The notes under the pieces are model-generated. The model saw only the letters and a list, made by a program, of their open reading frames with translations, searched no databases and was not told the DNA's origin. Shown one piece after another: positions 1 through 53,971 of a stretch of DNA of 64,000 nucleotides. A program made the position numbers and the translations under genes. The DNA comes from Escherichia coli (GTDB lineage: Bacteria; Pseudomonadota; Gammaproteobacteria; Enterobacterales; Enterobacteriaceae). Positions within the stretch are counted from its first letter, which is position 1; each line of letters starts with the position of its first letter. Location of the stretch: NCBI RefSeq assembly GCF_013315695.1, contig NZ_CP054353.1; one strand, given 5' to 3'.

Positions 1-669
1 TGAACGTTTAGCCGTATCAACCACAGCAATATACTGCTCGTTGGCTTCACGTAACCGACTCATTTTCGCCAACATTTCCGCATAGTAAATACGTGCCTGC
101 GGGCCGGGGTAATAAGAAACAAGCACCTCAAACTCACTTTCCGCATCAGCGTATTTTTCTTGTGCGGCTAACGCTCTGGCAAATAACAAATGCCCGTCTG
201 CCGACTGAAAATCGGGGTTATAACGCATCACATCTTCCAGCGTCTGCTGACAGGCGGCGAACTCCTGAATAGCAAATTGCACCTGCGCCAGGCTTAACAT
301 CATTACCGCTTCATGGGCGAAAATTCCGCTTAACGCCTGCTGATAATGGGGAACGGCTTCGTGATAACGCCCAAGGCGCGCCAGTTCGTTAGCTAACGCA
401 TAATGGTTTTGATTAGTCTCGGCAATCGCCAGCTCTTCGGTTAATTTGTGCAGGTGGCGTTCCGGGCTGATTTTGTCCTGCAGGCGCATCAGCAAAGTAC
501 GCCCGTGACGGTCAGCGCCCGTTTCAGGCAGCATGACCATGACGAAATACGCCACGCAGCCAATCACCGGAAAACAGAAGATAATAAAAATCCAGTATCG
601 CTCTTGTCCGGAGCGATAAGCGTGAATACAGCAAAGCAGTTCAAGCATGACGACAACGGCATAATGCAT
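1..669 (-). CDS. Membrane-anchored TPR-like repeat protein, N-terminal part only (3' end runs off window start)
   Basis: Minus-strand frame open from ATG at 669 to position 1 (not in ORF track because it leaves the window). Hand translation starts MHYAVVVMLELLCCIHAYRSGQERYWIFIIFCFPVIGCVAYFV (hydrophobic helix) followed by TPR-like repeats (LANELARLGRYHEAVPHYQQAL...). Not UgpB-like. Confidence 0.5.
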   Translation of the reverse strand, partial: MHYAVVVMLELLCCIHAYRSGQERYWIFIIFCFPVIGCVAYFVMVMLPETGADRHGRTLLMRLQDKISPERHLHKLTEELAIAETNQNHYALANELARLGRYHEAVPHYQQALSGIFAHEAVMMLSLAQVQFAIQEFAACQQTLEDVMRYNPDFQSADGHLLFARALAAQEKYADAESEFEVLVSYYPGPQARIYYAEMLAKMSRLREANEQYIAVVDTAKRS

Positions 670-753
670 GGGAGGGAACCTTTCCGTGGCAAATAAGTGG
701 TCTGGTTTTAATCCTCCCGGTCAGTTGAAACAAGTCTGTATACGGACGAAGAA

Positions 754-776
754 CCCGGCAGAAGCTGGCTGCCGGG
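754..776 (-). terminator. Hairpin downstream of livF (cccggcag / ctgccggg), candidate terminator
   Basis: Inverted repeat directly 3' of livF stop on minus strand, followed by a partly T-rich tract. Confidence 0.45.
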
Positions 777-787
777 TATTCGATAAT

Positions 788-1501
788 TTACCCGCCTAAA
801 TACGCACTTCTCACCGCTTCGTTTGCCAGCAGCGCATCGCCGGTATCGGAGAGCACCACATGACCGTTTTCCAGCACGTAGCCGCGATCCGCCAGCTTTA
901 GCGCCTGGTTGGCGTTCTGCTCGACGAGGAAGATGGTCATCCCCTGCTCGCGCAGTTGTTCGATGGTGTCGAAAATTTGCTGGATGATAATCGGTGCCAG
1001 CCCGAGCGATGGCTCATCAAGCAGTAGCAAACGCGGGTTACTCATCAAAGCGCGACCAATCGCCAGCATCTGCTGTTCACCGCCGGACATAGTGCCCGCT
1101 CGCTGAACACGGCGCTCATGCAGACGTGGAAACAGTTCGTAGACCCACTTTATGCGCTCCTGGAACTGGTCGCGTTCGGCAAAAAAGCCGCCCATCGCCA
1201 GGTTCTCTTCCACCGTCATCCGCGAGAAGACGCGACGCCCTTCCGGGACAATCGCTACCGCTTCGCGCATGATTTTCGCCGTCTGCCAGTCGGTAATGTC
1301 TTTATCATCAAACACAATTCGCCCGCTGGTGGCGCGCGGATCGCCGCATAACGTGCCGAGCAAGGTGGTTTTCCCCGCCCCGTTCGCGCCAATCAGCGTG
1401 ACAATTTCGCCCTGATTGATATGCAGGCTCACCTCATGCAGCGCCTGGATTTTGCCGTAGTGGGCGCTGACTTTGTCAAAGGACAACATGACTTTTTCCA
1501 T
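788..1501 (-). CDS. livF: Branched-chain amino acid ABC transporter ATP-binding protein LivF
   Basis: ORF 788..1513; start trimmed to MEKVMLSF. Walker A GANGAGKTT; matches remembered LivF (237 aa). Confidence 0.93.
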   Translation of the reverse strand: MEKVMLSFDKVSAHYGKIQALHEVSLHINQGEIVTLIGANGAGKTTLLGTLCGDPRATSGRIVFDDKDITDWQTAKIMREAVAIVPEGRRVFSRMTVEENLAMGGFFAERDQFQERIKWVYELFPRLHERRVQRAGTMSGGEQQMLAIGRALMSNPRLLLLDEPSLGLAPIIIQQIFDTIEQLREQGMTIFLVEQNANQALKLADRGYVLENGHVVLSDTGDALLANEAVRSAYLGG

Positions 1502-1502
1502 C

Positions 1503-2270
1503 TTATGCCTCACCTAAATAGGCTCGGATCACGTCCGGGTTATTACGGATCTGCTCCGGTGTACCGTTTGCCAGCGGCGTCCCCTGGTTGACCACGTAAA
1601 TTCGGTCTGAAATTCCCATCACCAGCTTCATATCGTGTTCAATCAACAAGATAGTGGTGTTGTGATGATTACGCAGTTCGGCAATCAGCTCATCCAGCTC
1701 TTTCGTCTCTTTCGGGTTAAGTCCTGCTGCCGGTTCGTCGAGCATTAAAATCTCCGGCTGCGTCACCATGCAGCGGGCGATCTCCAGACGACGCTGGTCG
1801 CCATAGGCCAGGTTACTCGCCTGACGGTTGGCGTGTTCCAGCAAACCAATGCGCTCAAGCCAGGTGGCGGCGCGGTCGAGCGCTTCGCTCTGGGCGCGAC
1901 GGAAAGAAGGCGTTTTCAACAGGCCGGAGAACAGCCCGGTTTTCAGTTGCTGATGCTGTGCCACCAGCAGGTTTTCAATCACCGTCATTTCACGGAACAG
2001 ACGTACATGCTGGAAGGTGCGCACCACGCCCATGCGGGCAATTTGCTGCCCCGGTAAACCTTCCAGATGCTGATCGCGCAGTAAAATGGTGCCGCCGGTG
2101 GGTTTATAGAATCCGGTCAGGCAGTTGAAGACCGTGGTTTTTCCGGCACCGTTAGGGCCGATTAACGAGACGATCTCCTGCGGGTACAGTTCGAGATTGA
2201 CGTTGTTCACCGCCAGCAGGCCGCCGAAGCGCATCATCAGACCGTTAACAGATAATAATGTCTGACTCAT
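1503..2270 (-). CDS. livG: Branched-chain amino acid ABC transporter ATP-binding protein LivG
   Basis: 255 aa, [17 protein letters not shown]..., Walker [10 protein letters not shown]. Confidence 0.93.
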
Positions 2271-3544
2271 GCCTGCTCTCCTTTCGCTGCGCCGTTCTTC
2301 AGCTTGAGTTGCGGGCGCGTCATGGGCAGCAAGCCCTGCGGACGCCAGATCATCATCAGCACCATCAAACCACCAAGCATTAACATGCTGTATTCGTTGA
2401 AATCACGCATCAACTCGCGCGATACCACCAGCAAAACAGCCGCCAGAATCACTGCAAATTGCGAGCCCATACCGCCGAGCACCACTATCGCCAGCACAAA
2501 CGCCGATTCGGCAAAAGTGAAGGATTCAGGGCTGACAAAGCCCTGGCGCGCAGCAAACAACGTTCCGGCAAAACCGGCAAACGCAGCGCTGATGGTAAAG
2601 GCAGTCAGCTTGATACGACGCGGGCTTAAGCCCAGCGAACGGCAGGCGATCTCGTCTTCACGCAACGCTTCCCACGCACGACCCAGCGGCATCCGCAGCA
2701 GGCGGTTAATGACAAACAGGCTTAACACCACCAGCAGCAACGCCACCAGGTAGAGGAAAATGACGCGATCGGAGGGATCGTATTTCAGGCCAAAGAAATT
2801 ACTGAACGTGTCCCAGCCGCCTTCGCGGGCGGTACGGCTGAACTCGAGGCCGAAGAAAGTCGGTTTCGGGATCTGACTAATTCCGTTCGGGCCACCGGTG
2901 ATTTCAGTGTTATTGAGCAGCAAGATGCGCACAATTTCGCCGAAACCGAGGGTAACGATCGCCAGATAGTCGCCACGTAAACGCAACACCGGGAAGCCGA
3001 GCAGGAAGCCCGCCGCCGCCGCCATCAACCCGGCAATCGGCAGACAGGTCCAGAAGCCCAGACCGTAATAGTGATTGAGCAGCGCAAAAGTGTAAGCGCC
3101 GATGGCGTAAAAGCCGCCGTATCCCAGCACCAGCAGACCAGAAAGACCTACCACCACGTTCAGCCCGAGACCGAGAATAATGTAGATCATGGTCAGGGTG
3201 GCGATATCCACCGTCCCACGTGAAACCATAAACGGCCACGCCACCGCAATCACCAGCAGCGCCACGAGAAACAGCTTTTGCTTCACCGTGGAGCCATCAA
3301 TCGCTGGCAGAATAAACTTAGGCCCGGAAACGCTTTTCAGCCCTTTCTGGAAAGCCGGTCGCAAAATCTGGAAGAAAAAGACCACCGCCGTGCCGATAAA
3401 CACCCACTGCCAACGGATGTCTGAAGCCGTGTCGACCACCAGTTTGGTGCCATCCAGCTCCAGTTGCACGCCCATAAAGACGCCAGCGAGGACAAAGAAC
3501 ATCGCGGCAGAGAGCAGCGCCATTGCAATATGCATCGGTTTCAT
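2267..3544 (-). CDS. livM: Branched-chain amino acid ABC transporter permease LivM
   Basis: 425 aa polytopic membrane protein, 4-bp overlap with livG, operon position. Confidence 0.92.
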
Positions 3545-4467
3545 ACTTTCTCTACCTCCGGGCGACCCAGAATACCGGTCGGCATCACCAGCAACACCAG
3601 AATCAGCAGGGCGAATGAGACCACATCTTTATATTCCGTACTCAGATAGGCAGAAGAGAGCGCCTCCGCAATCCCCAGAATCAGGCCGCCAATCATCGCT
3701 CCCGGAATGCTGCCAATCCCACCGAGCACCGCAGCGGTAAAGGCTTTCATCCCGGCCATAAAGCCGATGTAGGGGTTAATTACGCCGTAGAACTGACCGA
3801 GCAGCACACCCGCCACCGCCGCCATCGCCGCGCCAATCACAAAGGTCAGCGCAATCACCCGATCGGTGTTGATGCCAAGCAGGCTCGCCATTTTCAGATC
3901 TTCCGCGCAGGCACGACAGGCGCGCCCCATGCGGGAATAGCGAATGAAAATCGTCAGCGCCAGCATGGCGAGGAAAGTAACAATCCAGATCACCGCCTGC
4001 ATGGTGGTAATAGAGGCAGAGAAGTTTTCGCTATGGCCCACCACCCACTGACCGTTAAACAGGCTCGGCAGCGCCACGTCGCGCGAACCTTCGGTCAGGC
4101 TGACGTAGTTTTGCAGGAAGATAGACATGCCGATTGCGGAAATAAGCGCAATCAGGCGCTTAGAGTTACGCACCGGGCGATAGGCCACCCGTTCGATACT
4201 CCAGCCGTAGGCGCTGGCAATGACGATTGCGCCAACGAATCCCGCCGCCACCAGCAGCCAGCCGGTATCAATTCCCAGCATCATCAGTGCAGCGATGATC
4301 ATAAAGGAGACGTAGCTGCCGATCATATAAACCTCACCGTGGGCGAAGTTGATCATGCCGATAATGCCGTAAACCATGGTGTAGCCGATGGCTATCAGCG
4401 CGTAGGTACTGCCCAGCGTGACGCCGTTAAACATCTGCTGCAAGAAATACAAAAACTGCTCAGACAT
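3541..4467 (-). CDS. livH: Branched-chain amino acid ABC transporter permease LivH
   Basis: 308 aa membrane protein, operon position. Confidence 0.92.
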
Positions 4468-4514
4468 AAGGTAACCTTTCTAAACCCGCCCGTTTTTCAC
4501 GGGCAGTGGGATGA

Positions 4515-5624
4515 TCACTTGGCTGCCGTGGATGAACCGTCGGCGTGCCACTGGAAGACACCAAAATCAAATCCCTTAAGATCGCCTTTTTCATCCCAGT
4601 TCAGCGGCCCAATTACGGTGTTTGCACCGTTAGCTTTTAAATCTTTCACCAGCGCCAGCGGCTCATCGCTGCCGGTACGCTCAAGTGCAGTCGCCAGAGA
4701 TTGCACCGCCGCGTAAGTGATCCAGACATATGGCCCGGACGGATCTTTCTTGTCTGCTTTCAGCGCATCAACGATGTCCTGATTTGCCGGATCCTGGTCA
4801 TAGCGTTTTGGCATAGTGACCAACATGCCTTCGGCAGCATCGCCAGCAATATTCGACAACGACGCATTACCCACACCTTCCGGCCCCATAAACTGGGTTT
4901 TCAGGCCAACGGAACGGGCCTGGCGCAGCATCTGCCCCATTTCCGGGTAGTAACCGCCGTAGTAAACGAAGTCGATGTTTTCTTTTTTCAGGCGGGCGAT
5001 CAGCGCGGAGAAATCTTTCTCTCCAGCGGTAATGCCGTCGAAGAAGACGACGTTGGCGTTAGCCGCTTTCAGCCCGTCCTGCACCGAACGTGCCAGTCCT
5101 TCGCCATACTGTTGTTTGTCGTGAATGATGGCGATGCGCTGGGGCTTCACCGTCTCAAGAATGTATTTTGCCGCCGTTGGCCCCTGGGAAGAGTCCAGCC
5201 CGGCAGTACGCATGATGTATTGATAACCGCGTTGGGTCAGCTCCGGATTGGTCGCTCCCGGCGAGATCATCAGAATACCTTCGTCTTCATAGATATCTGA
5301 TGCAGGTTGGGTAGAGGAGGAACACAGATGACCAATAACATATTTAATGCCGTCGTTAACGATTTTGTTGGCGACCGCAACGGCTTGTTTCGGGTCGCAG
5401 GCGTCGTCATATTCCACGCCAACCAGTTTATCGCCCTTAATTCCCCCTTTGGCATTAATGTCTTTAATTGCCTGACGCGCGCCGTTAAATTCCATATCGC
5501 CCCACTGGGCAATCGGGCCGGACATCGCGCCGACAACGGCGACTTTAATATCGTCAGCCATAGCGGTGTGTGAAATTGTCAGTGCAATCATCCCTGCGAT
5601 GATAGTTTTCGCATTCCGTTTCAT
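4515..5624 (-). CDS. livK: Leucine-specific periplasmic binding protein LivK
   Basis: ORF 4515..5678; start moved to [15 protein letters not shown] (signal peptide). Paralogue of livJ. Confidence 0.9.
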
Positions 5625-6047
5625 AGTCAAAAATCCCCATTCGTGATGTTGTGTTGCTTTGTTTTTATGTGTTAACAAATCAGACTGTTCTTTTTTTATA
5701 CTGCACTGTTTTTACCTGTCTGATTAAGGGTTTAGCGCAGTACTTTGTGATGATAGCGATTAAAACCCCTATTTTTCAGTCGATTAATAACAGATAATAT
5801 TCTGAATTTATTGATAGATAAACAGAAAAAAGCGCCGTTGTCAGCATAAAATAACGGTACAAAGGGCAGAATAATTCACTACCATTTAGGGGATTATGCT
5901 GGATATTTTTCATTCTCTAATGTTTTAACTTTGTAATTATTGCTGAAAAAAAATTAATCACCTGCCAAAAGAAATAAAAAAGAGAAAGCCTCCGATTAAA
6001 TTATTTCGCTACACTGGTTCCACTTTTGTGATTTACACGGGTTCCCC

Positions 6048-6431
6048 ATGAAGCTGACCATCATTCGATTAGAAAACTTTAGCGACCAGGACCGGATTGA
6101 CCTGCAAAAGATCTGGCCGGAATATTCCCCTTCCTCTTTACAGGTTGACGATAACCACCGCATCTACGCCGCGCGTTTTAACGAGCGCCTGCTCGCGGCC
6201 GTGCGGGTAACCTTAAGCGGCACTGAGGGGGCACTGGATTCCCTGCGCGTGCGGGAAGTCACCCGCCGTCGCGGTGTGGGGCAATATCTGCTGGAAGAGG
6301 TTTTGCGTACCAATCCTGGCGTTTCATGTTGGTGGATGGCGGATGCTGGCGTGGAAGATCGCGGCGTGATGACGGCGTTTATGCGAGCACTGGGATTTAC
6401 GGCACAACAGGGTGGCTGGGAGAAGCGTTAA
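6048..6431 (+). CDS. panM: PanD maturation factor PanM/PanZ (GNAT fold)
   Basis: 127 aa, MKLTIIRLENFSDQDRIDLQKIW..., K-12 position between livK and livJ. Confidence 0.88.
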   Translation: MKLTIIRLENFSDQDRIDLQKIWPEYSPSSLQVDDNHRIYAARFNERLLAAVRVTLSGTEGALDSLRVREVTRRRGVGQYLLEEVLRTNPGVSCWWMADAGVEDRGVMTAFMRALGFTAQQGGWEKR

Positions 6432-6460
6432 TCGTCAAGTTTGATTTCACAAGTGATATT

Positions 6461-6560
<100 letters not shown>

Positions 6561-6618
6561 TGAAGCAACGTACTCGATATTAGCAATTTGGCGGCAACCC
6601 AAAGTTGCCGATTAATGA

Positions 6619-7722
6619 TTACTTCGCATCGGTCGCCGTGCCGTTGGCGTGCCAGTCAAATACGCCGAACTCAAAGCCTTTCAGATCGCCTTTCTCATCC
6701 CAGCTAAGCGGCCCCATCACCGTATCAACCGAGTTCGCTTTCAGGTATTTAGCGATCTCCGCCGGATCGTCAGACTGATTCAGCCCCGCTTGCAAAGATT
6801 GCAGCGCGGCGTAGGTGGTCCAGACGAACGCGCCGCTTGGGTCCTGTTTTTTCGCTTTGATCGCGTCAACAATCGGTTTGTTCGCCGGAACCTGATCGTA
6901 GTTCTTCGGCTTGGTCACCAGCAGCCCTTCCGCTGATTCGCCTGCAATGTTAGACAGCGAGACGTTAGCCACGCCTTCCGGCCCCATAAACTGAGTTTTC
7001 AACCCTGCCGCGCGTGCCTGACGCAGGATTTGCCCCATTTCCGGGTGATAACCACCGTAGTAAACGAAGTCGATATTCTCTTTCTTCAAACGCGCCACCA
7101 GGGTAGAGAAATCTTTTTCCCCAGCGGTGATACCATCAAAGAACACCACGTTAGCATTGCCTTTCTTCAGGCCGTCCTGCACCGCACGCGCCAGACCTTC
7201 GCCGTACTGCTGTTTGTCGTGGACGATAGCAATACGCTGCGGTTTCACTTTCTCAAGAATATATTTCGCCGCCGTCGGCCCCTGGTCGGAGTCCAGGCCG
7301 GTAGTGCGCAGGATCAGCTGATAGCCACGGGCGGTCAGCTCTGGCGCGGTTGCCGCTGGGGTGATCATTAAAATGCCTTCATCTTCATAGATGTCTGACG
7401 CTGGCTGCGTTGATGAAGAACAGAGGTGACCAATCACATATTTAATGCCGTCGTTAACGACTTTGTTCGCCACCGCAACCGCCTGTTTCGGGTCACAGGC
7501 ATCGTCATATTTCACGATTTGCAGTTTGTTGCCTTTGATACCACCTTTAGCATTGATATCCGCAACCGCCTGCTCAGCACCAGTAAACTCCTGGTCACCG
7601 TACTGCGCCACCGGACCGGACATTGCGCCTACGACGGCGACTTTAATATCTTCTGCCAGAGCCATATTGCTGAATGCCAGCGCGATACATCCTGCCAGTA
7701 ACGCTTTACCCTTTATGTTCAT
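6619..7722 (-). CDS. livJ: Leu/Ile/Val periplasmic binding protein LivJ
   Basis: ORF 6619..7821; start trimmed to [23 protein letters not shown] (signal peptide); 367 aa. Confidence 0.9.
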
Positions 7723-7940
7723 CCTGAGAATCCCCACTCTTCTGGTTATTACGTGTGTTGTGATGTTGTTGTGCAGCACTTTATTTCGTTTTATACGTAG
7801 CCACCCGTGCTTTAGCAGCATACTCTGCTAAAACATACCCCATTTTTATGATATTGGAATAGCTATTTTGACAGTTTATTAACAATCTGCGTGGGGATTG
7901 GCGTTTTGCCGGAGGGGGAAACTGATTATTGTAGAGGCCC

Positions 7941-7972
7941 AAAAAACAAAAACCCCGGACTCTCATCCAGGG
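7941..7972 (-). terminator. Rho-independent terminator of rpoH
   Basis: Hairpin ccccgga / tccaggg followed on minus strand by TTTTTGTTTTTT. Confidence 0.6.
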
Positions 7973-7993
7973 TTCTCTGCTTAATAGCGGAAA

Positions 7994-8848
7994 TTACGCT
8001 TCAATGGCAGCGCGCAATTTTTTCATCGCGTTCTTTTCCAGCTGACGCACACGCTCAGCGGAAACACCGTAACGGTCAGCCAGTTCCTGCAACGTGGACT
8101 TGTTGTCTTCGTCCAGCCAGCGCGCGCGGATGATATCCTGGCTACGCTCGTCCAGACCTTGCATCGCGTCGGTCAGACGGTTTGCCGCCTGCTCTTCCCA
8201 GTTATCATCTTCGATGCCGTCAGCAAAGTTAGATGATTTATCCTGCAGATAGAGCACCGGAGCCATCGGCTGGCTGTCGGAATCGTCATCGGAAGACAGG
8301 TCAAAGGTCATGTCCTGTGCCGCCATACGCGATTCCATCTCACGTACGTCTTTGCTGGTTACGCCCAGTTCACGGGCCACCATTTCGACTTCATCCTGAT
8401 TAAACCAGCCCAGACGCTGCTTGGTTTTACGCAGGTTGAAGAACAGTTTGCGCTGCGCTTTGGTGGTCGCAACTTTGACGATACGCCAGTTGCGCAGAAC
8501 GTATTCGTGGATCTCTGCTTTGATCCAGTGAACGGCGAAGGAGACCAGGCGCACACCCACTTCCGGGTTAAAACGGCGCACTGCTTTCATCAGGCCGATG
8601 TTACCTTCCTGAATCAAATCCGCCTGTGGCAGGCCATAGCCCGCATAATTACGAGCAATATGAACAACAAACCGCAGGTGAGACAGGATCAGCGTTTTAG
8701 CTGCTTCCAGATCGCCATGGTAATGCAGCTTTTCAGCCAGCGCCCGCTCCTCGTCAGCCGACAACATCGGCCACGCGTTAGCTGCCCGGATGTAGGAATC
8801 CAGGTTGCCAACTGGGGCTAAAGCTAAACTTTGCATTTTGTCAGTCAT
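7994..8848 (-). CDS. rpoH: RNA polymerase sigma-32 (heat-shock sigma factor)
   Basis: 284 aa, [43 protein letters not shown]... Confidence 0.96.
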
Positions 8849-8941
8849 TCAAATCCTCTCAATCGATATCTTCTGGCGCTTCAGTGGTAGCAACAACTGT
8901 GCCAGAGCTTAAGAGCAACGAGGTTATCATTCACTGTTTTA

Positions 8942-8968
8942 TCAGACAGTGATTTTATCCACAAGTTC
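8942..8968 (-). promoter_or_regulatory. Sigma-E-type promoter upstream of rpoH (GAACTT-N16-TCTGA)
   Basis: On minus strand GAACTT (8968..8963), 16-nt spacer, TCTGA (8946..8942); matches the sigma-E consensus and the known rpoH P3 arrangement. Confidence 0.6.
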
Positions 8969-9092
8969 AATGCAACGCTGTGAATAAATTACGCACAAAA
9001 TGTGACATAGAGATGAAATACCGGGAAGAGACAACGGGGTCTCTTTCCCTGCTACGGAACCCATTGCAGGGAAAGAGTATAACACGCTTTTA

Positions 9093-10151
9093 TTATTCAG
9101 GCGTAAAGTGGCGTAAATGTTGTACCGTGGCAAGCCACGCTGCCACCCAGCCAATCATCGAGCATACCAGCAGCAATAGCAGGCATTCATCGAACGATAA
9201 GCCATTGATATCAAACTTTGTTCCGAAAACCTGTGCCACTTCCGCAACCGCCGATGACAAACGCAGTACCAGAATTTCTGACAAAATTAGTGACAACAAT
9301 GCGCCAGAAAATCCCAGCAGTGCGCCACCGTACAGGAACGGGCGCAGGATGAAACCATCCGTCGCACCAATCAGTTTCTGCACGTTAATGGAGTCACGGC
9401 GAGCAAAGATACTCAGGCGCACACTGTTACCGATGACGAGGAACACTGCCGCCACCATCAACACGCCGATCATCGCGGAAACGCGCCCGACCAGCCCGGT
9501 TAACGCCGCCAGACGGGCAAACCAGCTGTCATCCATCCGCACTTCGTCAATGCCGTTGATCTGGGTGATACGATCACGCAGCGTATTCAGTGATTCCGTC
9601 CCCTGAAAATCGAGTTTCGGGATCACCACCGCCACTGCCGGAAGCGGGTTTTCTTCCAGCATATCCAGCGCACCACCAAAACCAGACCAGTTACGGAACT
9701 CGCCCAGTGCGTCTTCACGAGAAAGATAATTCACTTTCTCCACGCCTTGCTCAGCCTGCAACTGTGCCACCACGCCCGCAGCGGCGTCATCATCCAGCGT
9801 TTTTTGCAGATAAACAGTGATTTGCGGTGACGGATAATATTGCGTCGCCGCCTGGTTAACGTTTTTGTACACCATATAACAGACGCTGGGCAGCGTCAGG
9901 GAGATGGCGATAACCATCACCGTTAAAAACGTGGCGAACGGTTTGCTTTTCAGATCTTGCAATGCGCCGTGGAAGGCATAGCGCACCTGTTCGTTGAAAA
10001 CGTTGGTTTTGCGATTTACCGGTTTTGGCGAGGATTTCGCACGTTTCGGCGCGTTACGACCGCCGTCGCCAGAGCCGCCGACCGATTTACGGAAGCGATC
10101 CAGACGCCCGCCAAACTGCCGAATATGATTGATTGCATCGCGCTTATTCAT
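9093..10151 (-). CDS. ftsX: Cell division ABC transporter permease-like protein FtsX
   Basis: ORF 9093..10178; start trimmed to [15 protein letters not shown] (352 aa). Confidence 0.93.
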
Positions 10152-10812
10152 GGCCCACGCCTCCATGCAAGTGACCATCGCTCAGGGTGAGCATGCGATA
10201 GGAACGCCGCGAGATCAGGTTGATGTCGTGCGTTGCCATCAATACGGTTACCCCAACGCGGTTAAACTCTTCAAACAGCCGTAGAATCCCTTCCGACAAC
10301 GCGTCGTCCAGGTTACCGGTCGGTTCGTCCGCCAGCAATACCGCGGGCTTGTTCACCACCGCGCGGGCAATGCCAACACGCTGTTGTTCACCGCCCGAAA
10401 GCTGAATAGGGAAGTTCTTCGCTTTGTCCAGTAGCCCGACTTTATCCAGCGCCGCCGACACCCGGCGACGAATATCGTCACCGCTGGCACCGGCGATAAT
10501 CAGCGGGATCGCCACGTTATCGTAGACGGTACGGTCCATCAGCAGATGGTGATCCTGAAAAATCATACCGATCTGACGACGCAGAAATGGCACCTCGCGA
10601 TTTTTCAGTCGCGTGATGTCATGGCCGCTAAACCAGATTTTCCCAGCACTGGGCCGCTCAATCCCACAAATCAGCTTCAGGAGGGTACTTTTCCCTGCGC
10701 CGGAATGACCGGTCAGAAACGCCATCTCACCCGGCTGCATATGGAACGTCACGCCCTGCAGCGCTTGCCTCCCACCGAGATAAGCCTTGCTGACATGTTC
10801 AAAGCGAATCAT
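10144..10812 (-). CDS. ftsE: Cell division ATP-binding protein FtsE
   Basis: 222 aa, Walker [13 protein letters not shown] signature LSGGEQQR. Confidence 0.95.
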
Positions 10813-10814
10813 TG

Positions 10815-12329
10815 TTAATCCTCTCGGGCAAAAAGTGCCTCAATAAAGTCGTCCGCTTTAAACGGACGCAAATCCTCAATACGTTCGCCGACACCAATGT
10901 AGCGGATAGGAATACCAAACTGGTCAGCCACCGAGAAAATTACCCCACCTTTCGCTGTACCGTCCAGTTTCGTCAACGTAATGCCGGTTAAACCAACCGC
11001 TTCGTGGAACAGTTTGGCCTGGCTTACCGCATTCTGCCCGGTGCTGGCGTCAATTGTCAGCATAACTTCATGCGGGGCTTCAACGTCGAGCTTCTTCATC
11101 ACGCGGACGATTTTCTTCAGCTCTTCCATCAGGTGCGATTTGTTCTGCAAACGTCCGGCGGTATCGGCAATTAATACGTCGATGTTACGTGCCTTCGCAG
11201 CCTGAATGGCATCGAAGATAACAGAGGCAGAATCGGCACCAGTATGCTGAGCAATCACCGGAATATTGTTGCGCTGGCCCCAGACCTGAAGCTGTTCAAC
11301 CGCTGCCGCACGGAAGGTATCGCCCGCCGCCAGCATCACCGATTTACCCTGCTGCTCAAACTGACGCGCCAGCTTACCGATAGTGGTGGTTTTACCCACG
11401 CCGTTGACGCCTACCATCAGGATCACAAACGGCGCTTTGCCTTCGACGTTAAGCGGTTCATCGACTTTTGCCAGAATCTCGCCCATCTCTTCTTTCAACA
11501 GGCCGTAGAGCGCCTCAGCATCGCGAAGCTGCTTGCGGGTCGCGCCTTCGGTCAGATTAGTGATGATTTTGCGCGTAGTTTCCACACCCACGTCGGCAAT
11601 GAGCAGTTGTTCTTCCAGCTCTTCAAACAGATCATCGTCGATTTTTTTGCCACGGAACAGGCTGATAAATCCTGAACCGAGGTTTTCTTTAGTCTTCAGA
11701 AGGCTGCGTTTCAGGCGCGCGAAGAAACCTTCTTTGGTTGGTTTTTCCTGCTCCTGGGCAATTTCTTCAACCAACGGCTCTTCTTCTACCGCAGGAACAA
11801 GCTCCACCGCCTCTTCTGCGGCTTCATCAGCCAACGCCTGCGCTTCCAGCTCTTCGTCGGTAATCTCTTCTTTTGCCGCTTCTTCTTCCGCCGCGTCGAC
11901 AATCTCTACCGTTTCTGCTTCTGCCTGCCATTCTTCTGGCGAAATCTCTTCGGCTTTGACTTCTTCCGGCAGCGGTTGCTCTTCACGCTCACTAGCCACA
12001 GGCTCAGGTGTGGCTTCAGATTCAACTACCGGTTCCGGCTCTGCAATAACTTCCGGTTCGCTAACCGCTTCCGGCTGCGCTTTTTCGTTTTCGGCAACCT
12101 GTTCAGTGACTTGAACGACGTCGGCAGCGAAAGTTTCCGCCTCTGCTTCAGTATGTGTCTGAGGCAGCTCTTCTGTAGGCTGTTCAGCGACCTTCGCAGG
12201 CTCTTGCGCCTGAACGGTCTCTTCTACAACCGGTTGATCGTTCTGGACTTCTGTCTCTTTTTCCGGGGTCTGCTCTTTTTGACCAAAGCCCAGCCAGGAA
12301 AAAAAGCCACGTTTTTTTTCTTTCGCCAT
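10815..12329 (-). CDS. ftsY: Signal recognition particle receptor FtsY
   Basis: 504 aa; acidic E/A/P-rich N-terminal domain then NG GTPase domain (GVNGVGKTTT, DTAGR). Confidence 0.94.
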   Translation of the reverse strand: MAKEKKRGFFSWLGFGQKEQTPEKETEVQNDQPVVEETVQAQEPAKVAEQPTEELPQTHTEAEAETFAADVVQVTEQVAENEKAQPEAVSEPEVIAEPEPVVESEATPEPVASEREEQPLPEEVKAEEISPEEWQAEAETVEIVDAAEEEAAKEEITDEELEAQALADEAAEEAVELVPAVEEEPLVEEIAQEQEKPTKEGFFARLKRSLLKTKENLGSGFISLFRGKKIDDDLFEELEEQLLIADVGVETTRKIITNLTEGATRKQLRDAEALYGLLKEEMGEILAKVDEPLNVEGKAPFVILMVGVNGVGKTTTIGKLARQFEQQGKSVMLAAGDTFRAAAVEQLQVWGQRNNIPVIAQHTGADSASVIFDAIQAAKARNIDVLIADTAGRLQNKSHLMEELKKIVRVMKKLDVEAPHEVMLTIDASTGQNAVSQAKLFHEAVGLTGITLTKLDGTAKGGVIFSVADQFGIPIRYIGVGERIEDLRPFKADDFIEALFARED

Positions 12330-12481
12330 CTGCGACTACACTCCTCGCTGTTGCTTCATGGCACAGCGTTAACGACGCTATGTACATAGCAGCTATAAAA
12401 ATGATGAAATAGTCTATCACTTAACTTAATTCACATCACCGCCTGCAAGTATGTGTTAACAGGCGGATTGAGCAAATTGTC

Positions 12482-13078
12482 ATGAAAAAACCGAATCATT
12501 CCGGCAGCGGCCAAATCCGCATTATTGGCGGTCAGTGGCGAGGCCGTAAACTCCCGGTTCCGAATAGCCCTGGTCTGCGCCCCACCACCGATCGCGTACG
12601 TGAAACGCTGTTTAACTGGCTGGCGCCAGTCATTGTTGATGCGCAATGTCTGGATTGTTTCGCCGGCAGCGGCGCACTGGGGCTGGAAGCCTTGTCGCGC
12701 TACGCTGCGGGGGCTACGCTGATTGAGATGGAGCGCACAGTTTCTCAGCAGTTAATCAAAAATCTGGCGACGCTGAAAGCAGGCAATGCACGCGTGGTGA
12801 ACAGTAATGCGATGTCATTCCTGGCGCAAAAAGGTACGCCGCATAATATCGTATTTGTCGATCCGCCATTCCGTCGTGGCTTGTTAGAAGAGACGATTAA
12901 TTTACTGGAAGATAACGGCTGGCTGGCTGACGAAGCCTGGGTTTATGTCGAAAGCGAAGTCGAAAACGGTCTGCCCACCGTTCCGGCAAACTGGTCGTTA
13001 TATCGCGAAAAAGTAGCGGGTCAGGTTGCTTATCGCCTGTATCAACGTGAAACACAAGGAGAAAGTGATGCTGATTAA
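12482..13078 (+). CDS. rsmD: 16S rRNA m2G966 methyltransferase RsmD
   Basis: 198 aa, MKKPNHSGSGQIRIIGGQWRGRKL..., DPPF motif. Confidence 0.93.
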   Translation: MKKPNHSGSGQIRIIGGQWRGRKLPVPNSPGLRPTTDRVRETLFNWLAPVIVDAQCLDCFAGSGALGLEALSRYAAGATLIEMERTVSQQLIKNLATLKAGNARVVNSNAMSFLAQKGTPHNIVFVDPPFRRGLLEETINLLEDNGWLADEAWVYVESEVENGLPTVPANWSLYREKVAGQVAYRLYQRETQGESDAD

Positions 13079-27276: not shown

Positions 27277-28023
27277 ATGAAATCATTAAGTAAGTCGTCA
27301 CAAATACCGCTCTATCAACAAGTGGTGGAGTGGATAAGAGAAAGTATTTATACCGGGGATCTGGTGGAAGACGATCGCATTCCTTCGGAATACCAGATTA
27401 TGGATATGCTGGAAGTGAGTCGGGGAACCGTTAAAAAAGCGGTCGCCCAACTGGTAAAAGAAGGCGTGTTGATTCAGGTCCAGGGGAAGGGAACTTTTGT
27501 CAAAAAAGAGAACGTGGCATATCCGTTAGGTGAAGGATTATTGTCATTCGCGGAATCGCTGGAAAGCCAGAAAATACATTTTACCACTGAAGTTATTACG
27601 TCACGGATTGAACCGGCTAATCGTTATGTGGCAGAGAAATTAAGAATAACGCCCGGTCAGGATATTCTTTACCTTGAGCGTTTACGTTCAATTGGTGATG
27701 AAAAAGCGATGCTGATAGAGAACCGTATCAATATTGAGCTATGCCCCGGCATCGTGGAAATCGATTTTAATCAACATAATTTATTTCCAACAATAGAAAG
27801 TTTGTCGCAAAGAAAAATTCGTTACTCGGAAAGTCGCTATGCCGCGCGATTAATTGGTAATGAACGCGGTCATTTTTTAGATATCAGTGAAGATGCACCC
27901 GTTTTGCATCTGGAGCAGTTAGTCTTTTTCTCCCGAGAGTTACCCGTTGAGTTTGGCAACGTCTGGTTAAAAGGAAATAAATATTATCTGGGCACCGTGC
28001 TGCAACGGCGGGAAGTGAGTTAA
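27277..28023 (+). CDS. GntR/HutC-family transcriptional regulator (winged HTH + UTRA effector domain)
   Basis: ORF 27268..28023 (GTG); ATG at 27277 with AGGTG SD. HTH region IPSEYQIMDMLEVSRGTVKKAVAQLVKEGVL. Confidence 0.8.
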   Translation: MKSLSKSSQIPLYQQVVEWIRESIYTGDLVEDDRIPSEYQIMDMLEVSRGTVKKAVAQLVKEGVLIQVQGKGTFVKKENVAYPLGEGLLSFAESLESQKIHFTTEVITSRIEPANRYVAEKLRITPGQDILYLERLRSIGDEKAMLIENRINIELCPGIVEIDFNQHNLFPTIESLSQRKIRYSESRYAARLIGNERGHFLDISEDAPVLHLEQLVFFSRELPVEFGNVWLKGNKYYLGTVLQRREVS

Positions 28024-28047
28024 ATACACTTTTTTATGAGGAATAAA

Positions 28048-28521
28048 ATGCAAGGCATACAGTTTCAGGAAAATTATATTCAACGACTTCCGGCAGGGTT
28101 AAGCGTTGAACAGATCATCCGTCAGTTAGCGCAACCGTTGGTTGCTGCTGAGCTGGTGGTCCCTGATTTTGCCAATCACGTACTGAAACGTGAGGCGACG
28201 TACCCAACGGGGCTGCCTACCGAACCACCGTGCGTCGCCATTCCGCACACGGACCATAAACATGTCCGGCACAATGCAATTGCCGTCGGTATTTTGCCAG
28301 AGCCGGTAGAGTTTGCCGATATGGGCGGCGACCCTGATCCCGTACCTGTCAGGGTGATTTTTTTGCTCGCCTTAAGTGAAAGTAATAAACAATTAAATGC
28401 CCTGGGCTGGATTATGGAGATGATTCAGGATACGCCCTTTATGCGCGCCCTGCTTACGATGGAAACAACAGAAATACACACAGTAATCTTAAACAAAATG
28501 AATGAACGAGGTGAAATATGA
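28048..28521 (+). CDS. PTS EIIA component, galactitol (GatA-like) family
   Basis: ORF 28036..28521; ATG 28048 after GAGGA. Phospho-His region CVAIPHTDHKHV resembles GatA AIAIPHCEA. Confidence 0.8.
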   Translation: MQGIQFQENYIQRLPAGLSVEQIIRQLAQPLVAAELVVPDFANHVLKREATYPTGLPTEPPCVAIPHTDHKHVRHNAIAVGILPEPVEFADMGGDPDPVPVRVIFLLALSESNKQLNALGWIMEMIQDTPFMRALLTMETTEIHTVILNKMNERGEI

Positions 28522-28799
28522 GTCAAACCATTTTATTTGTCTGCGCCACAGGTATTGCCACATCCACGGCGGTAACAGAAAAAGTCATGGAGTATTGCAA
28601 AGAGCACGGCCTTAACGTCAATTATTCCCAAACCAACGTTGCCTCTTTACCCGGTAATACCGACGGCGTAGCGCTGGTTGTTTCAACGACTAAAGTGCCT
28701 TATGAACTCGACGTCCCGGTAGTTAACGGCTTGCCGATTATTACCGGTATTGGCGAAGAGAAAGTACTGGCGCAAATTGTTTCGATTCTTAAAAAGTAA
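28518..28799 (+). CDS. PTS EIIB component, galactitol (GatB-like) family
   Basis: 93 aa, ILFVCATGIATST (phospho-Cys loop); 4-bp overlap with EIIA gene. Confidence 0.8.
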   Translation: MSQTILFVCATGIATSTAVTEKVMEYCKEHGLNVNYSQTNVASLPGNTDGVALVVSTTKVPYELDVPVVNGLPIITGIGEEKVLAQIVSILKK

Positions 28800-28872
28800 T
28801 TAATAATTAATTCCAACCCACTCCATCAGGCGCTAACGCGAGGTGCGCTCTCGCCTGAAAAAGAGGTTTATT

Positions 28873-30231
28873 ATGAACGATATCGCGCATACCCTCTATA
28901 ATATTGTGCAATATATATTGGGATTTGGCCCCACGGTAATGTTGCCGTTGGTGTTATTTATTCTTGCTCTCTGTTTTAAAGTAAAACCCGCTAAAGCCTT
29001 ACGCTCGTCATTAACAGTCGGCATTGGTTTTGTCGGTATTTATGCCATTTTCGATATTCTTACCAGCAATGTCGGGCCAGCGGCCCAGGCGATGGTTGAA
29101 CGCACCGGAATTAATTTACCGGTGGTGGATTTAGGCTGGCCGCCGCTTTCCGCTATTACATGGGGTTCGCCAATTGCCCCGTTTGTTATTCCCCTGACCA
29201 TTCTGATTAATGTCGCAATGCTGGCGTTAAATAAAACCCGCACCGTTGATGTAGATATGTGGAACTACTGGCATTTTGCCCTTGCCGGTACGCTGGTTTA
29301 TTACAGCACCGGCAGCCTATTCTTTGGTTTGCTGGCGGCCGCGATTGCCGCAGTGGTGGTGCTAAAACTCGCCGACTGGTCTGCGCCACTGGTACAAAAA
29401 TACTTTGGCCTGGAAGGGATCTCATTGCCGACGCTCTCTTCGGTGGTGTTCTTCCCGGTCGGTCTGCTGGTCGACAAAATCATCGACCATATCCCTGGCC
29501 TCAATCGTATTCATATCGACCCGGAAACCGTACAGAAAAAGTTTGGCATCTTCGGCGAACCGATGATGGTTGGCACTATTCTGGGCATTCTGCTCGGCGT
29601 AATTGCCGGATACGATTTCAAAAAAGTCTTGCTGCTTGGCATCAGCATTGGCGGTGTGATGTTCATCCTGCCACGCATGGTTCGCATCCTGATGGAAGGT
29701 TTATTACCGCTGTCTGAAGCCATTAAAAAGTATCTCAATGCCAAATACCCTGACCGTGACGATCTCTATATAGGACTGGATATCGCCGTTGCCGTAGGTA
29801 ACCCGGCGATTATCTCCACCGCCCTGCTGCTGACGCCAATCTCGGTCTTTATCGCGTTTGTCCTCCCAGGTAATGAAGTCCTGCCGCTTGGCGACCTTGC
29901 CAACCTGGCGGTAATGGCGTCGATGATTGCTTTAGCCAGCCGTGGCAATATTTTCCGCACCGTTCTGGCGGCGATCCCGGTGATTATTGCCGACCTGTGG
30001 ATTGCCACTAAAATCGCGCCGTTTATTACCGGAATGGCGAAAGACGTTAACTTCAAATTTGCCGAAGGCTCCAGCGGCCAGGTTTCCAGTTTCCTTGATG
30101 GCGGTAACCCGTTCCGCTTCTGGCTGCTGGAAATCTTCAACGGCAATCTCATCGCCATTGGTCTGGTGCCGGTTATCGCCCTGATACTGTATGGCATTTT
30201 CCGAATGACGCGGAGCACGGTTTATGCCTGA
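28873..30231 (+). CDS. PTS EIIC permease, galactitol (GatC-like) family
   Basis: ORF 28843..30231; ATG 28873 after AAGAGG. Polytopic; strong resemblance to GatC (GPTVMLP..., GEPMMVGTILG, FGDLANL). Confidence 0.82.
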   Translation: MNDIAHTLYNIVQYILGFGPTVMLPLVLFILALCFKVKPAKALRSSLTVGIGFVGIYAIFDILTSNVGPAAQAMVERTGINLPVVDLGWPPLSAITWGSPIAPFVIPLTILINVAMLALNKTRTVDVDMWNYWHFALAGTLVYYSTGSLFFGLLAAAIAAVVVLKLADWSAPLVQKYFGLEGISLPTLSSVVFFPVGLLVDKIIDHIPGLNRIHIDPETVQKKFGIFGEPMMVGTILGILLGVIAGYDFKKVLLLGISIGGVMFILPRMVRILMEGLLPLSEAIKKYLNAKYPDRDDLYIGLDIAVAVGNPAIISTALLLTPISVFIAFVLPGNEVLPLGDLANLAVMASMIALASRGNIFRTVLAAIPVIIADLWIATKIAPFITGMAKDVNFKFAEGSSGQVSSFLDGGNPFRFWLLEIFNGNLIAIGLVPVIALILYGIFRMTRSTVYA

Positions 30232-31732
30232 TAACAGCGCAGCTATCGTTATCGATATTGGCACCACCAATTGCAAAGTCACCTGCTTTTCCTGCCTGGA
30301 TGCAACGACGTTGGGCGCGCATAAATTCGTGACGGCAAAACAGATCTCCCCACAGGGCGATGTCGATTTCGATATCGACGTCCTCTGGCAGGAGGTCCGC
30401 CAGGCAATAGCGCAACTGAGCGCCGCTTCGCCGCTGCCGGTCAGGCGGATAAGCATTGCCAGTTTTGGCGAGTCAGGGGTGTTTCTTGACGAGCATGGCG
30501 AGATCCTGACGCCAATGCTGGCATGGTATGACCGCCGCGGTGAAGAGTACCTGGCAACGCTTAGTGAGGCAGACAGTGCGGCGCTTTATGACATCTGCGG
30601 GCTACCGCTGCACAGCAATTACTCTGCCTTCAAAATGCGTTGGTTGCTGGAGCATTATCCACTGCGTAATCGCCGCGGCCTGCGTTGGCTACATGCGCCG
30701 GAAGTACTGCTCTGGCGGCTGACTGGCGAACAGCGTACGGATATCACCTTAGCCAGCCGTACGCTGTGTCTGGACGTGCGTAAAGGCGAATGGTCAGCGA
30801 AAGCGGCGGCGTTGTTACACGTTCCCTGTTCAGCATTTGCGCCATTGGTGCAGCCAGGCGAGCACGCCGGATGGGTCAGCGAGTCGCTCTGCAAAACGCT
30901 TGGGTTCTTGCAACCGGTCAGCGTGACGCTGGCCGGGCATGACCATATGGTGGGTGCGCGGGCGTTGCAGATGACGCCGGGCGATATCCTTAACTCGACG
31001 GGCACCACAGAAGGCATTCTGCAACTGGATACACAACCGACGCTGGATGAACAGGCCAAACGTGACAAGCTGGCAAACGGCTGTTATTCGCTTGCAAACC
31101 AGTTCACCCTGTTTGCGTCGCTGCCGGTGGGCGGTTTCGCTCTGGAGTGGCTGCGCAACACGTTCCGGCTAACCGATGAGGAGATCGCCGCATCACTTAC
31201 TCGCGGACATGCGGATTACCTGGCGGGGAACTGGTCGCTCGATGACATTCCCGTTTTTATTCCGCATCTTCGCGGTTCGGGTTCGCCCTATAAAAATCGC
31301 CATACCCGAGGATTATTTTATGGGCTTGGCGATACGTTAAATATCGATATGTTAATTGCCAGCGTCTCACTGGGATTAACCATGGAATTTGCCAACTGCT
31401 TCGCCTGTTTTAATGTGCCCGGCACCAGCGCGTTAAAAGTGATAGGTCCGGCAACCCATAATCCCCTTTGGCTGCAATTAAAGGCGGATATTTTACAGCG
31501 TCCGGTTGAAGCAATTGCATTTAACGAGGCGGTTTCTGTCGGAGCATTATTAACCGCCGCACCGGATATTCCACCGCCGCAAGTCACCATAGCCCAACGT
31601 TTGTTACCGAATCGGGCGAGATACCATCAATTACAGCGTTATCAGCACAAATGGAAAAGCTGGTATCAGTTGAAATTACAGCAAGAAGGCGTGATGCCAT
31701 TACATCATCGGGAGGAGCACTATGTTGAGTAA
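30224..31732 (+). CDS. FGGY-family carbohydrate kinase
   Basis: 502 aa; N-terminal AAIVIDIGTTNCKV ATPase motif; 8-bp overlap with EIIC gene. Confidence 0.75.
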   Translation: MPDNSAAIVIDIGTTNCKVTCFSCLDATTLGAHKFVTAKQISPQGDVDFDIDVLWQEVRQAIAQLSAASPLPVRRISIASFGESGVFLDEHGEILTPMLAWYDRRGEEYLATLSEADSAALYDICGLPLHSNYSAFKMRWLLEHYPLRNRRGLRWLHAPEVLLWRLTGEQRTDITLASRTLCLDVRKGEWSAKAAALLHVPCSAFAPLVQPGEHAGWVSESLCKTLGFLQPVSVTLAGHDHMVGARALQMTPGDILNSTGTTEGILQLDTQPTLDEQAKRDKLANGCYSLANQFTLFASLPVGGFALEWLRNTFRLTDEEIAASLTRGHADYLAGNWSLDDIPVFIPHLRGSGSPYKNRHTRGLFYGLGDTLNIDMLIASVSLGLTMEFANCFACFNVPGTSALKVIGPATHNPLWLQLKADILQRPVEAIAFNEAVSVGALLTAAPDIPPPQVTIAQRLLPNRARYHQLQRYQHKWKSWYQLKLQQEGVMPLHHREEHYVE

Positions 31733-31991
31733 AACCGTGGAGGTCAGAAACAGTACTGGCCTGCATGCACGTCCGGCGGCCTGTCTGGCGAAAGCCGCCA
31801 AAAAATATAGCTGTAAAGTGACGCTGCATTATGAAGGTAATGATATTAATGCCACCAGCATGATGAATATTATGCGCGCCGGAATAAAAGGCGGAAAAAC
31901 GGTGGAAATACGCTGCGAAGGTGATGATGAAAACGAGGCAATACAAACTCTCACTACCTTATTTCGCGACCGCTTCGGTGAAGCTGAATAA
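31722..31991 (+). CDS. HPr-like phosphocarrier protein (island-encoded paralogue)
   Basis: 89 aa; active-site GLHARPAA (His-15 equivalent); overlaps kinase gene. Confidence 0.8.
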   Translation: MLSKTVEVRNSTGLHARPAACLAKAAKKYSCKVTLHYEGNDINATSMMNIMRAGIKGGKTVEIRCEGDDENEAIQTLTTLFRDRFGEAE

Positions 31992-32022
31992 TTAACTGAT
32001 ATTAAAAGATGAGGTTTTCAAT

Positions 32023-32883
32023 ATGCCATTAGTTAATGGACGGATACTGCTCGACCGCATTCAGGAAAAACGGGTATTAGCGGGCGCATTTAATACCACC
32101 AATCTGGAGACAACGATTTCAATTTTAAACGCCATTGAGCGTTCAGGATTACCCAACTTCATTCAGATTGCGCCCACCAATGCACAACTGTCGGGATACG
32201 ATTACATTTATGAAATCGTGAAACGTCACGCTGATAAAATGGATGTTCCGGTCAGTCTTCATCTTGATCACGGGAAAACTCAGGAGGATGTTAAACAGGC
32301 GGTGCGCGCGGGCTTTACCTCGGTCATGATTGACGGTGCCGCATTCTCTTTTGAAGAGAATATCGCTTTCACCCAGGAAGCTGTCGATTTCTGTAAATCC
32401 TATGGCGTACCGGTTGAAGCGGAGCTGGGGGCGATTCTCGGCAAAGAAGACGATCACGTCAGCGAAGCCGATTGCAAAACGGAACCGGAAAAGGTGAAGA
32501 CCTTTGTCGAACGCACCGGTTGCGACATGCTGGCAGTTTCTATTGGTAACGTTCATGGCCTGGACGATATACCGCGGATCGATATCCCCCTGCTGAAGCG
32601 CATTGCCGAAGTCAGCCCGGTGCCGCTGGTTATTCACGGCGGCTCCGGTATCGCCCCGGAGATATTACGCAGTTTCGTTAATTATCGCGTCGCTAAAGTG
32701 AATATCGCCAGCGATCTGCGCAAAGCGTTTATCACCGCAGTCGGCAAAGCCTATGTGAATAATCACAACGAGGCGAATCTGGCACGAGTGATGGCATCAG
32801 CAAAAAACGCCGTCGAGGAAGATGTGTATAGCAAAATCCTGATGATGAATGAGGGGCATCGGTTGATTAGAAAGGCATCTTAA
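32023..32883 (+). CDS. Class II ketose-bisphosphate aldolase (GatY/KbaY/FbaA family)
   Basis: 286 aa; LHLDHG, VEAELG, HGGSG motifs of class II FBA family. Confidence 0.82.
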   Translation: MPLVNGRILLDRIQEKRVLAGAFNTTNLETTISILNAIERSGLPNFIQIAPTNAQLSGYDYIYEIVKRHADKMDVPVSLHLDHGKTQEDVKQAVRAGFTSVMIDGAAFSFEENIAFTQEAVDFCKSYGVPVEAELGAILGKEDDHVSEADCKTEPEKVKTFVERTGCDMLAVSIGNVHGLDDIPRIDIPLLKRIAEVSPVPLVIHGGSGIAPEILRSFVNYRVAKVNIASDLRKAFITAVGKAYVNNHNEANLARVMASAKNAVEEDVYSKILMMNEGHRLIRKAS

Positions 32884-51296: not shown

Positions 51297-51323
51297 TCAA
51301 TAATCACTAAAATGGAGCCGACC

Positions 51324-53954: not shown

Positions 53955-53971
53955 AAACATGAGGTATTTTA

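Follow-up and report, generated by a model that had tools for sequence, protein, structure and literature searches.

The 64,000-nucleotide stretch of Escherichia coli DNA under study (contig NZ_CP054353.1; hereafter the window) opens within a gene. Window positions 1–669 on the minus strand were shown to cover 90%, from the 5′ end, of a 248-codon gene that lies between livF and ugpB and is intact and of an expressed type. Taken jointly, the evidence makes it quite likely that this is an ancestral gene which is under selection, has been lost from the K-12-type majority of E. coli and encodes a membrane-tethered scaffold of tetratricopeptide repeats (TPR); it is referred to below as the TPR gene.

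Identification of the gene at the window edge

Translation of the minus strand gives an open frame of 223 codons, running from an ATG at 669–667 to the window edge with no stop. This frame had been noted in an earlier reading of the window made from its letters only (the sequence-only reading), and it stays uninterrupted when it is extended in E. coli MSB1_4I (NZ_LR898874.1), a genome that is collinear with the window at 99.98% identity over positions 1–12800 and 14094–64000. There the gene continues for 25 further codons and a stop, so that its 3′ end lies 78 bp past the left edge of the window. The complete coding sequence in MSB1_4I (L001 11923–12669; 248 aa) is annotated in RefSeq as WP_000558835.1, 'tetratricopeptide repeat protein', with the identical start codon, and the window product differs from it at a single one of the 223 visible residues, having V for A ('SLAQVQ' vs 'SLAQAQ').

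The TPR gene is missing from the list of open reading frames made for the window because its frame runs off the edge, as the sequence-only reading had supposed. In this region the list holds only livF and an 82-aa frame on the plus strand (448–696), which is an antisense shadow of the TPR gene. The open frame was confirmed to be a real gene and not a chance one by the RefSeq coding sequence, by full-length homologues (243–258 aa) that align with it end to end, by conservation of Met1 in at least 90% of 92 homologues and by a dN/dS of 0.09–0.12 between E. coli alleles. On the strength of the translation, the collinear coding sequence and this ratio, as well as the Pfam matches and AlphaFold2 (AF2) model described below, window 1–669 (minus strand) was annotated as codons 1–223 of the 248 of a WP_000558835.1-like gene for a membrane protein with a PLDc_N hairpin and TPR repeats.

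Predicted architecture of the protein

Profile matches and structural modelling showed a predicted order of a PLDc_N-type hairpin, a linker helix, five TPR repeats and a basic C-terminal helix. With the 223-aa fragment as query, the Pfam profiles TPR_19 (PF14559; 37.0 bits against a gathering cut-off of 25) and TPR_2 (PF07719; 30.4 against 27) were matched above threshold, and PLDc_N (PF13396) passed marginally over residues 26–43, with 23.5 bits for the fragment and 23.4 for the full-length protein against a cut-off of 23.3. Among the 92 homologues, all matched TPR_19 and TPR_14, and 54 matched PLDc_N at E≤0.01 (best 4.7e-07).

The AF2 model, built from the alignment of these 92 sequences, has a pLDDT of 94.9 and a pTM of 0.81. 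It places a hydrophobic hairpin at the N-terminus (helices 2–19 and 25–52, the latter kinked at P34), followed by an amphipathic linker helix (54–67), ten helices forming five TPR repeats (71–222) and a strongly basic C-terminal tail (225–247), nine of the last 27 residues being K or R. On the minus strand of the window the two-helix hairpin of PLDc_N type, delimited as residues 2–47 by the profile match, conservation and the AF2 helices, corresponds to 529–666, and the TPR repeats (residues ~71–222), delimited by the AF2 model, the Foldseek comparison and invariant alignment columns, to 4–459. The hydrophobic N-terminus and the three or more TPR-like repeats of the sequence-only reading are thus both recovered by Pfam and AF2, the actual count of repeats being five. 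A Foldseek search of the PDB returned only TPR superhelices (consensus TPR/CTPR, MamA, OGT and YrrB), the top matches with a probability of 1.00, and searching the PDB by sequence yielded nothing beyond weak, generic TPR matches (E≥0.006). No catalytic or enzymatic domain was found in the protein.

The most conserved positions of the protein lie in the hairpin, where H16, W26, G37, Y41 and P48 are each kept in 91 of the 92 homologues and P34 in 85; a few structural TPR positions are also kept. Closer members of the family share the motifs NPDFxSADGHLL(F/Y)AR (residues 151–165) and YYPG (187–190), and Y186, the residue before YYPG, is an invariant column in an alignment of 20 sequences.

A widespread family without a name

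The protein is a member of a widespread, unnamed and uncharacterised family of proteins of ~245–250 aa. Homologues share 67–75% identity with it in Citrobacter, 42–44% in Pseudomonas and 36% in Exilibacterium, and many metagenomic sequences belong here too. An exhaustive search, counted in clusters at 50% identity, returned 1778 clusters at E≤0.001, 786 at E≤1e-10 and 111 at E≤1e-30. It is a sizeable conserved family which has neither a Pfam or NCBIfam entry of its own nor a published function; a literature search by locus tag (Z4823, ECs4300) and by WP and NP accessions found nothing relevant on the protein.

Across six non-enterobacterial or metagenomic homologues no recurrent gene neighbour was identified. 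The Pseudomonas homologue lies beside genes for a LOG-family protein and MscS, that of Exilibacterium beside an ECF sigma factor and a kinase-like gene, and three metagenomic copies beside mnmE and a metallo-beta-lactamase gene, Bax1-I and SSF transporter genes, and genes for a caspase-like protein and a NUDIX protein, respectively. As the neighbours differ in every case outside the Enterobacteriaceae, no function can be borrowed from context. The N-terminal module that the protein shares with the cardiolipin synthase ClsA makes it a cheap target for knockout and localisation work in O157:H7 or Citrobacter.

Membrane topology and probable function

The likeliest role of the protein is that of a membrane-tethered, protein-binding scaffold. 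In this proposal the protein would be held at the inner membrane by its hairpin and would bind a partner protein or peptide in the groove of its TPR domain, so that, by analogy with adaptors of the LapB/YciM type, the whole may serve as a membrane-localised scaffold or adaptor and not as an enzyme or a transporter component.

The topology of the hairpin is ambiguous, with a modest preference for a TPR domain on the cytoplasmic side. Counting K and R residues gives means of 0.02 for the N-terminus, 2.15 for the loop and 3.09 for the 16 residues after helix 2, and ClsA has been described with a likewise 'positive after each helix' pattern (PMC9385802). The cytoplasmic side is favoured because there is more charge after helix 2, because the tail is very basic and because a hairpin with a 9-residue loop is easily inserted; the protein might accordingly be drawn as an N-in/C-in hairpin with its TPR domain facing the cytoplasm.

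The same architecture could also be placed the other way round (N-out/C-out), with a periplasmic TPR domain and a role in the envelope like that of CpoB/YbgF or NlpI, a reading that we regard as possible but the less probable. By the positive-inside rule, an uncharged N-terminus followed by a loop with about two K/R points to a cytoplasmic loop, and the best NCBIfam similarity of the protein, although far below the cut-off, is to the TPR region of YbgF (E=3.5e-07). However, the 16 residues after helix 2 are more basic still (3.1 K/R), the C-terminal 27 residues contain 9 K/R, and the export of 200 residues without a signal-peptide-like n-region is less simple than the insertion of a hairpin with a 9-residue loop. 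These counter-points are not decisive, and the cytoplasmic arrangement is preferred with corresponding caution.

For a passive anchor, such strong conservation of the hairpin would not be required, and to see the protein as a simple scaffold may be to overlook a role in sensing or one related to lipids. The nearly invariant intramembrane residues of the family (H16, W26, P34, G37, Y41 and P48) recur in the unexplained N-terminal motif of ClsA. It is conceivable, though improbable, that the conserved hairpin is a targeting module, or one sensing anionic lipid or curvature, which is shared with ClsA and would recruit the client of the TPR domain to cardiolipin-rich membrane. If this were true, E. 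coli of the O157 and K-12 types would differ in real physiological terms by having or lacking the TPR gene.

The livF–ugpB junction compared with K-12

In MSB1_4I the genes follow one another on one strand in the order livF, TPR gene and ugpB-ugpA-ugpE-ugpC-ugpQ, and the whole ugpBAECQ operon is intact to the left of the window. The start of ugpB lies ~360 bp past the stop of the TPR gene, and ugpB is therefore present and intact just off the window. The spacer between livF and ugpB measures 1224 bp with the TPR gene in the lineage of the window, whereas in K-12 MG1655 it is 398 bp and holds no gene.

Comparison of the two junctions by blastn showed that the common sequence stops 183 bp upstream of the ugpB start and resumes exactly at the livF stop codon. 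Between these points lies a variable segment of 1041 bp in the lineage of the window (window −253 to 787) and an unrelated one of 215 bp in K-12 (L002 3510–3724), which includes two REP-like palindromes, GCCGGATGCGGCGTAAACGCCTTATCAGGCCTAC and GCCTGATAAGCGCAGCGCATCAGGC. The boundaries are those given by blastn of both junctions, as a global MAFFT alignment misplaced the right flank. The flanking gene livF occupies window 788–1501 on the minus strand (788–1513 in the list of open reading frames) according to that list, the RefSeq annotation and the blastn breakpoint, and its stop codon (788–790) forms the right boundary of the segment that differs from K-12. The K-12 segment also holds its own, different hairpin after livF, GGAGTCAAAAGACTCC.

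The order that the sequence-only reading had assumed for K-12, with ugpB directly beside livF, is indeed that of MG1655, and the 223-aa fragment has no matching K-12 gene at this locus. That reading had proposed an additional or a replacement gene at the junction. Because ugpB is intact beyond the exchange of 1041 bp for 215 bp, the TPR gene is additional to the K-12 complement and the idea of a replacement falls away. UgpB itself, a protein with a signal peptide and the SBP_bac_1/8 fold, was ruled out as the product of the window gene, no SBP domain being found by Pfam; the earlier remark that the N-terminus is not the UgpB signal peptide agrees with this, and the true ugpB begins 360 bp further on.

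The livF–ugpB spacer of E. coli thus exists as two old and unrelated haplotypes, one with the TPR gene and the other with REP elements. They part 183 bp ahead of ugpB, and what precedes the ugp regulatory region is therefore not the same in all strains. No sign of an unusual system was seen at this junction, and the order of genes in K-12 is not a safe reference for other lineages of E. coli.

Distribution among E. coli genomes

Matches to the first 669–800 bases of the window were counted among 5426 complete E. coli genomes. By this measure the TPR gene is present in 659 of them (~12%), almost always as a single copy and always on the chromosome (660 of 660 copies), while the K-12-type junction is matched over at least 80% of its length in 4630. 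Carriers include O157:H7 (TW14359, Sakai, EDL933 and many more), O55:H7 and O145:H28. The gene is intact in O157:H7 TW14359, Sakai and O145 and is annotated as intact in nearly all of the 659 listed carriers; one E. coli strain has it interrupted by IS3, and partial copies occur in some Shigella entries.

The copy in Sakai is annotated as ECs_4300, 'hypothetical protein'. The gene livF is Z4824 in EDL933 according to an O157 transcriptome table (PMC5343319), and the TPR gene there is consequently Z4823. These O157:H7 genes (ECs_4300/Z4823; WP_000558835.1/WP_000558842.1) are the same gene as that of the window, at the same locus and of the same length (248 aa), and the O157 allele, with ~94% DNA identity to that of the window, shows no substantive difference. 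The TPR gene has been annotated since the first O157:H7 genomes, and its occurrence beside livF is an ordinary presence/absence difference between strains. The sequence-only reading had described it as unexpected, which does not hold for a gene annotated in 659 complete E. coli genomes, O157:H7 references among them, and representing the ancestral state of the locus.

The strain of the window is itself unusually divergent for its E. coli label, with 95.6% identity to K-12 over liv, and only 15 of the 5426 complete genomes reach at least 99% in a match to window 1–800. Possibly the strain represents a deep or cryptic lineage of Escherichia.

Ancestral residence at the locus

The comparison with other genera indicates that the TPR gene is ancestral at this locus, is under purifying selection where it is present and has been lost from the K-12-type majority. 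The order livF–TPR gene–ugpB, with the TPR gene directly after livF and in the same orientation, was found in further Escherichia assemblies, and the 90% cluster of the protein includes entries named E. fergusonii, E. coli and Shigella boydii. The position between livF and ugpB is also kept in an enterobacterial metagenome genome with 77% identity. In Citrobacter freundii the TPR gene (75% identity) again follows livF in the same orientation, with extra genes before ugpB. In C. freundii CP055551 the space between the TPR gene and ugpB (L003 6850–8324) is taken up by two open reading frames (93 and 135 aa) with no Pfam match and a Phd/YefM-Fic (Doc-like) toxin-antitoxin pair. These additions mark the livF–ugpB spacer as a recurrent site of gene gain and loss.

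Divergence within E. coli agrees with long residence. Between the lineage of the window and O157, dS is 0.22 for the TPR gene, 0.24 for livF and 0.18 for ugpB. When 25 kb (window 1–12800, L001 1–24800) are compared in tiles of 1 kb, the lineage of the window is 94–97% identical to Sakai, and the 94% identity of the TPR gene to its O157 allele is therefore background divergence. The comparison with Citrobacter is saturated at synonymous sites (pS 0.80), and no dN/dS was derived for that pair. The G+C content of the gene is ~0.50, and in the MSB1_4I annotation no integrase, transposase, tRNA, direct repeats or other mobility features were found at the site. The shared position across genera, the matching dS, the native G+C and the lack of mobility genes argue for an old resident that most E. 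coli have lost, and the low dN/dS between E. coli alleles indicates that selection maintains it where it is present. On this reading the 1041 bp from the livF stop to 183 bp upstream of ugpB were exchanged for 215 bp with the two REP-like elements.

That the K-12 arrangement is instead ancestral, and the TPR gene a small islet acquired horizontally by a minority of E. coli, is very improbable. Such an origin would fit a gene carried by only 12% of the complete genomes, at a junction that also varies elsewhere (the extra C. freundii reading frames with Phd/Fic, the IS3 in one E. coli copy), and with distant homologues that occupy unrelated contexts. It does not sit well, however, with the identical position and orientation after livF in Escherichia, the 77% metagenome genome and Citrobacter, with a synonymous divergence equal to that of the flanking livF and ugpB, or with a native G+C and the lack of integrase, transposase, tRNA and direct repeats; moreover, it is the K-12 allele that bears REP elements, and these typically enter intergenic DNA secondarily. 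Loss of an ancestral gene is thus the preferred explanation.

A decaying pseudogene or a functionless chance frame is scarcely credible: its absence without obvious harm from 85% of E. coli genomes, the IS3 disruption in one strain and the partial copies in Shigella entries might be read in this way, but the dN/dS of ~0.1, the conservation over the full length from Escherichia to Pseudomonas and beyond, the high-confidence predicted fold and the intact annotation in nearly all 659 listed carriers speak against it.

Putative expression signals

A Shine-Dalgarno-like GGAAAGG was read from the sequence at 679–685 (minus strand), 9 nt upstream of the ATG, and may serve as the ribosome-binding site of the TPR gene. 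It is conserved in the Escherichia alleles, and the Citrobacter and metagenome genomes have AAAGG or GGAAAGG. Further upstream lie two blocks, ACAGACTTGTTTCAA (725–739) and GGGAGGATTAAA (707–718); no other block of the spacer is conserved across Escherichia, Citrobacter and the 77% metagenome genome. From this cross-genus conservation, the region at 707–739 (minus strand) is proposed as a candidate promoter or regulatory site of the TPR gene itself.

On the livF side, RNA folding identified a G+C-rich hairpin, CCCGGCAG-N7-CTGCCGGG, followed by UUCUUCGU, at 754–776 (minus strand), 11 nt after the livF stop. Its stem is kept in Citrobacter with a different sequence, and it is probably a terminator or attenuator of the liv operon, setting livF apart from the TPR gene. 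Its weak T-run kept it from being flagged in the terminator scan. The same scan identified, inside the variable segment and 130 bp past the stop of the TPR gene, a hairpin that resembles a terminator and carries a T-run (L001 11793–11769).

It may be conjectured that the TPR gene forms a self-contained transcription unit, which would perhaps be transcribed alone from the upstream blocks, between the hairpin after livF and its own terminator. As sigma-70 and terminator scans of the spacer between livF and the TPR gene flagged no promoter there, a promoter of its own stays a conjecture.

Other differences around the window

A number of other differences were observed along the window. According to the MSB1_4I annotation, a HicA/HicB type II toxin-antitoxin pair adjoins yhhJ (32933–33564, minus strand); we take this pair to lie outside the K-12 order yhhJ–nikR. 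Between HicAB and nikR (27277–32883) there is a sugar-utilisation islet, presumably absent from K-12, which encodes a GntR regulator, a galactitol-type PTS (IIA/IIB/IIC), an FGGY kinase, an HPr-like protein and a class II aldolase. A second islet of ~8 kb, which we likewise assume to be absent from K-12, lies between rsmJ and dtpB (50486–58743). It encodes a ribulose-phosphate 3-epimerase, a 6-phospho-3-hexuloisomerase (hxlB), a HAD hydrolase, glycerol and mannitol dehydrogenases, an HPr-like protein, a DeoR regulator, a mannitol-type PTS (IIA/IICB) and a sorbitol-6-phosphate dehydrogenase.

Two features of Sakai are missing in the lineage of the window. One is a 15-kb cluster of acyl-carrier-protein, fatty-acid-synthase-like and acyltransferase genes (ECs_4324–4341; L021 32682–47698) located between yhhT and acpT, genes that directly follow one another in the lineage of the window; the other is a pair of an acetyltransferase toxin and its antitoxin (L021 16978–17778) between panM and livJ. 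Window 11001–12000, in the ftsY region, is 89% identical to Sakai (L021 22309–23307), with 95–97% in the neighbouring tiles, and ftsY is annotated as 1515 bp in MSB1_4I and 1497 bp in Sakai. The acidic N-terminal region of FtsY, which is variable, probably accounts for the low identity of this tile.

Comparison with known systems

The protein was compared with the named systems that it resembles in part. A role in anti-phage defence, or an origin as a phage-borne gene, was ruled out, since no PADLOC or PHROGs profile matched the protein at E≤0.1 and all 660 copies are chromosomal. The HemY-type TPR protein was rejected (TIGR00540; 18.1 bits against a cut-off of 142).

CpoB/YbgF was likewise rejected (TIGR02795; 30.8 bits against a cut-off of 90.1), although this is the best NCBIfam similarity of the protein, confined to the TPR region. 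The TPR protein lacks the signal peptide, coiled-coil N-domain and tol-pal context of CpoB/YbgF. Adaptors of the LapB/YciM type are similar in general design: like the TPR protein, they are small, carry a TPR array behind a membrane anchor at the N-terminus and lack a catalytic domain. LapB has one transmembrane helix and a C-terminal zinc domain of rubredoxin type, whereas the TPR protein begins with the two-helix PLDc_N hairpin and ends in a basic helix that lacks a Cys cluster, and LapB/YciM (NF008756) was rejected as an identity for it (12.7 bits against a cut-off of 474).

The hairpin itself is the point of likeness to the cardiolipin synthases. The motif W-x7-P-x2-G-x3-Y is common to the hairpin of the TPR protein and to the PLDc_N of ClsA-type cardiolipin synthases and many small membrane proteins, and both ClsA and the TPR protein have two hydrophobic stretches that are each followed by positive charges. 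The N-terminal domain of ClsA is described as only 'predicted' to be transmembrane, its conserved motif being of unknown function (PMC9385802). That the TPR protein is a lipid-metabolism enzyme or a fragment of a cardiolipin synthase has next to no probability and such catalysis is effectively refuted: PLDc_N is the N-terminal module of ClsA-type enzymes (PMC9385802) and there is a weak NCBIfam match to bac_cardiolipin, but the cardiolipin synthase model (TIGR04265) gives 12.8 bits against a cut-off of 290 and covers residues 22–98 only, there is no HKD/PLDc catalytic domain, and residues 71–222 are TPR helices by Pfam, AF2 model and fold search. What follows the shared module separates the two proteins, PLDc_N being fused to TPR repeats in the protein of the window and to HKD phospholipase D domains in ClsA.
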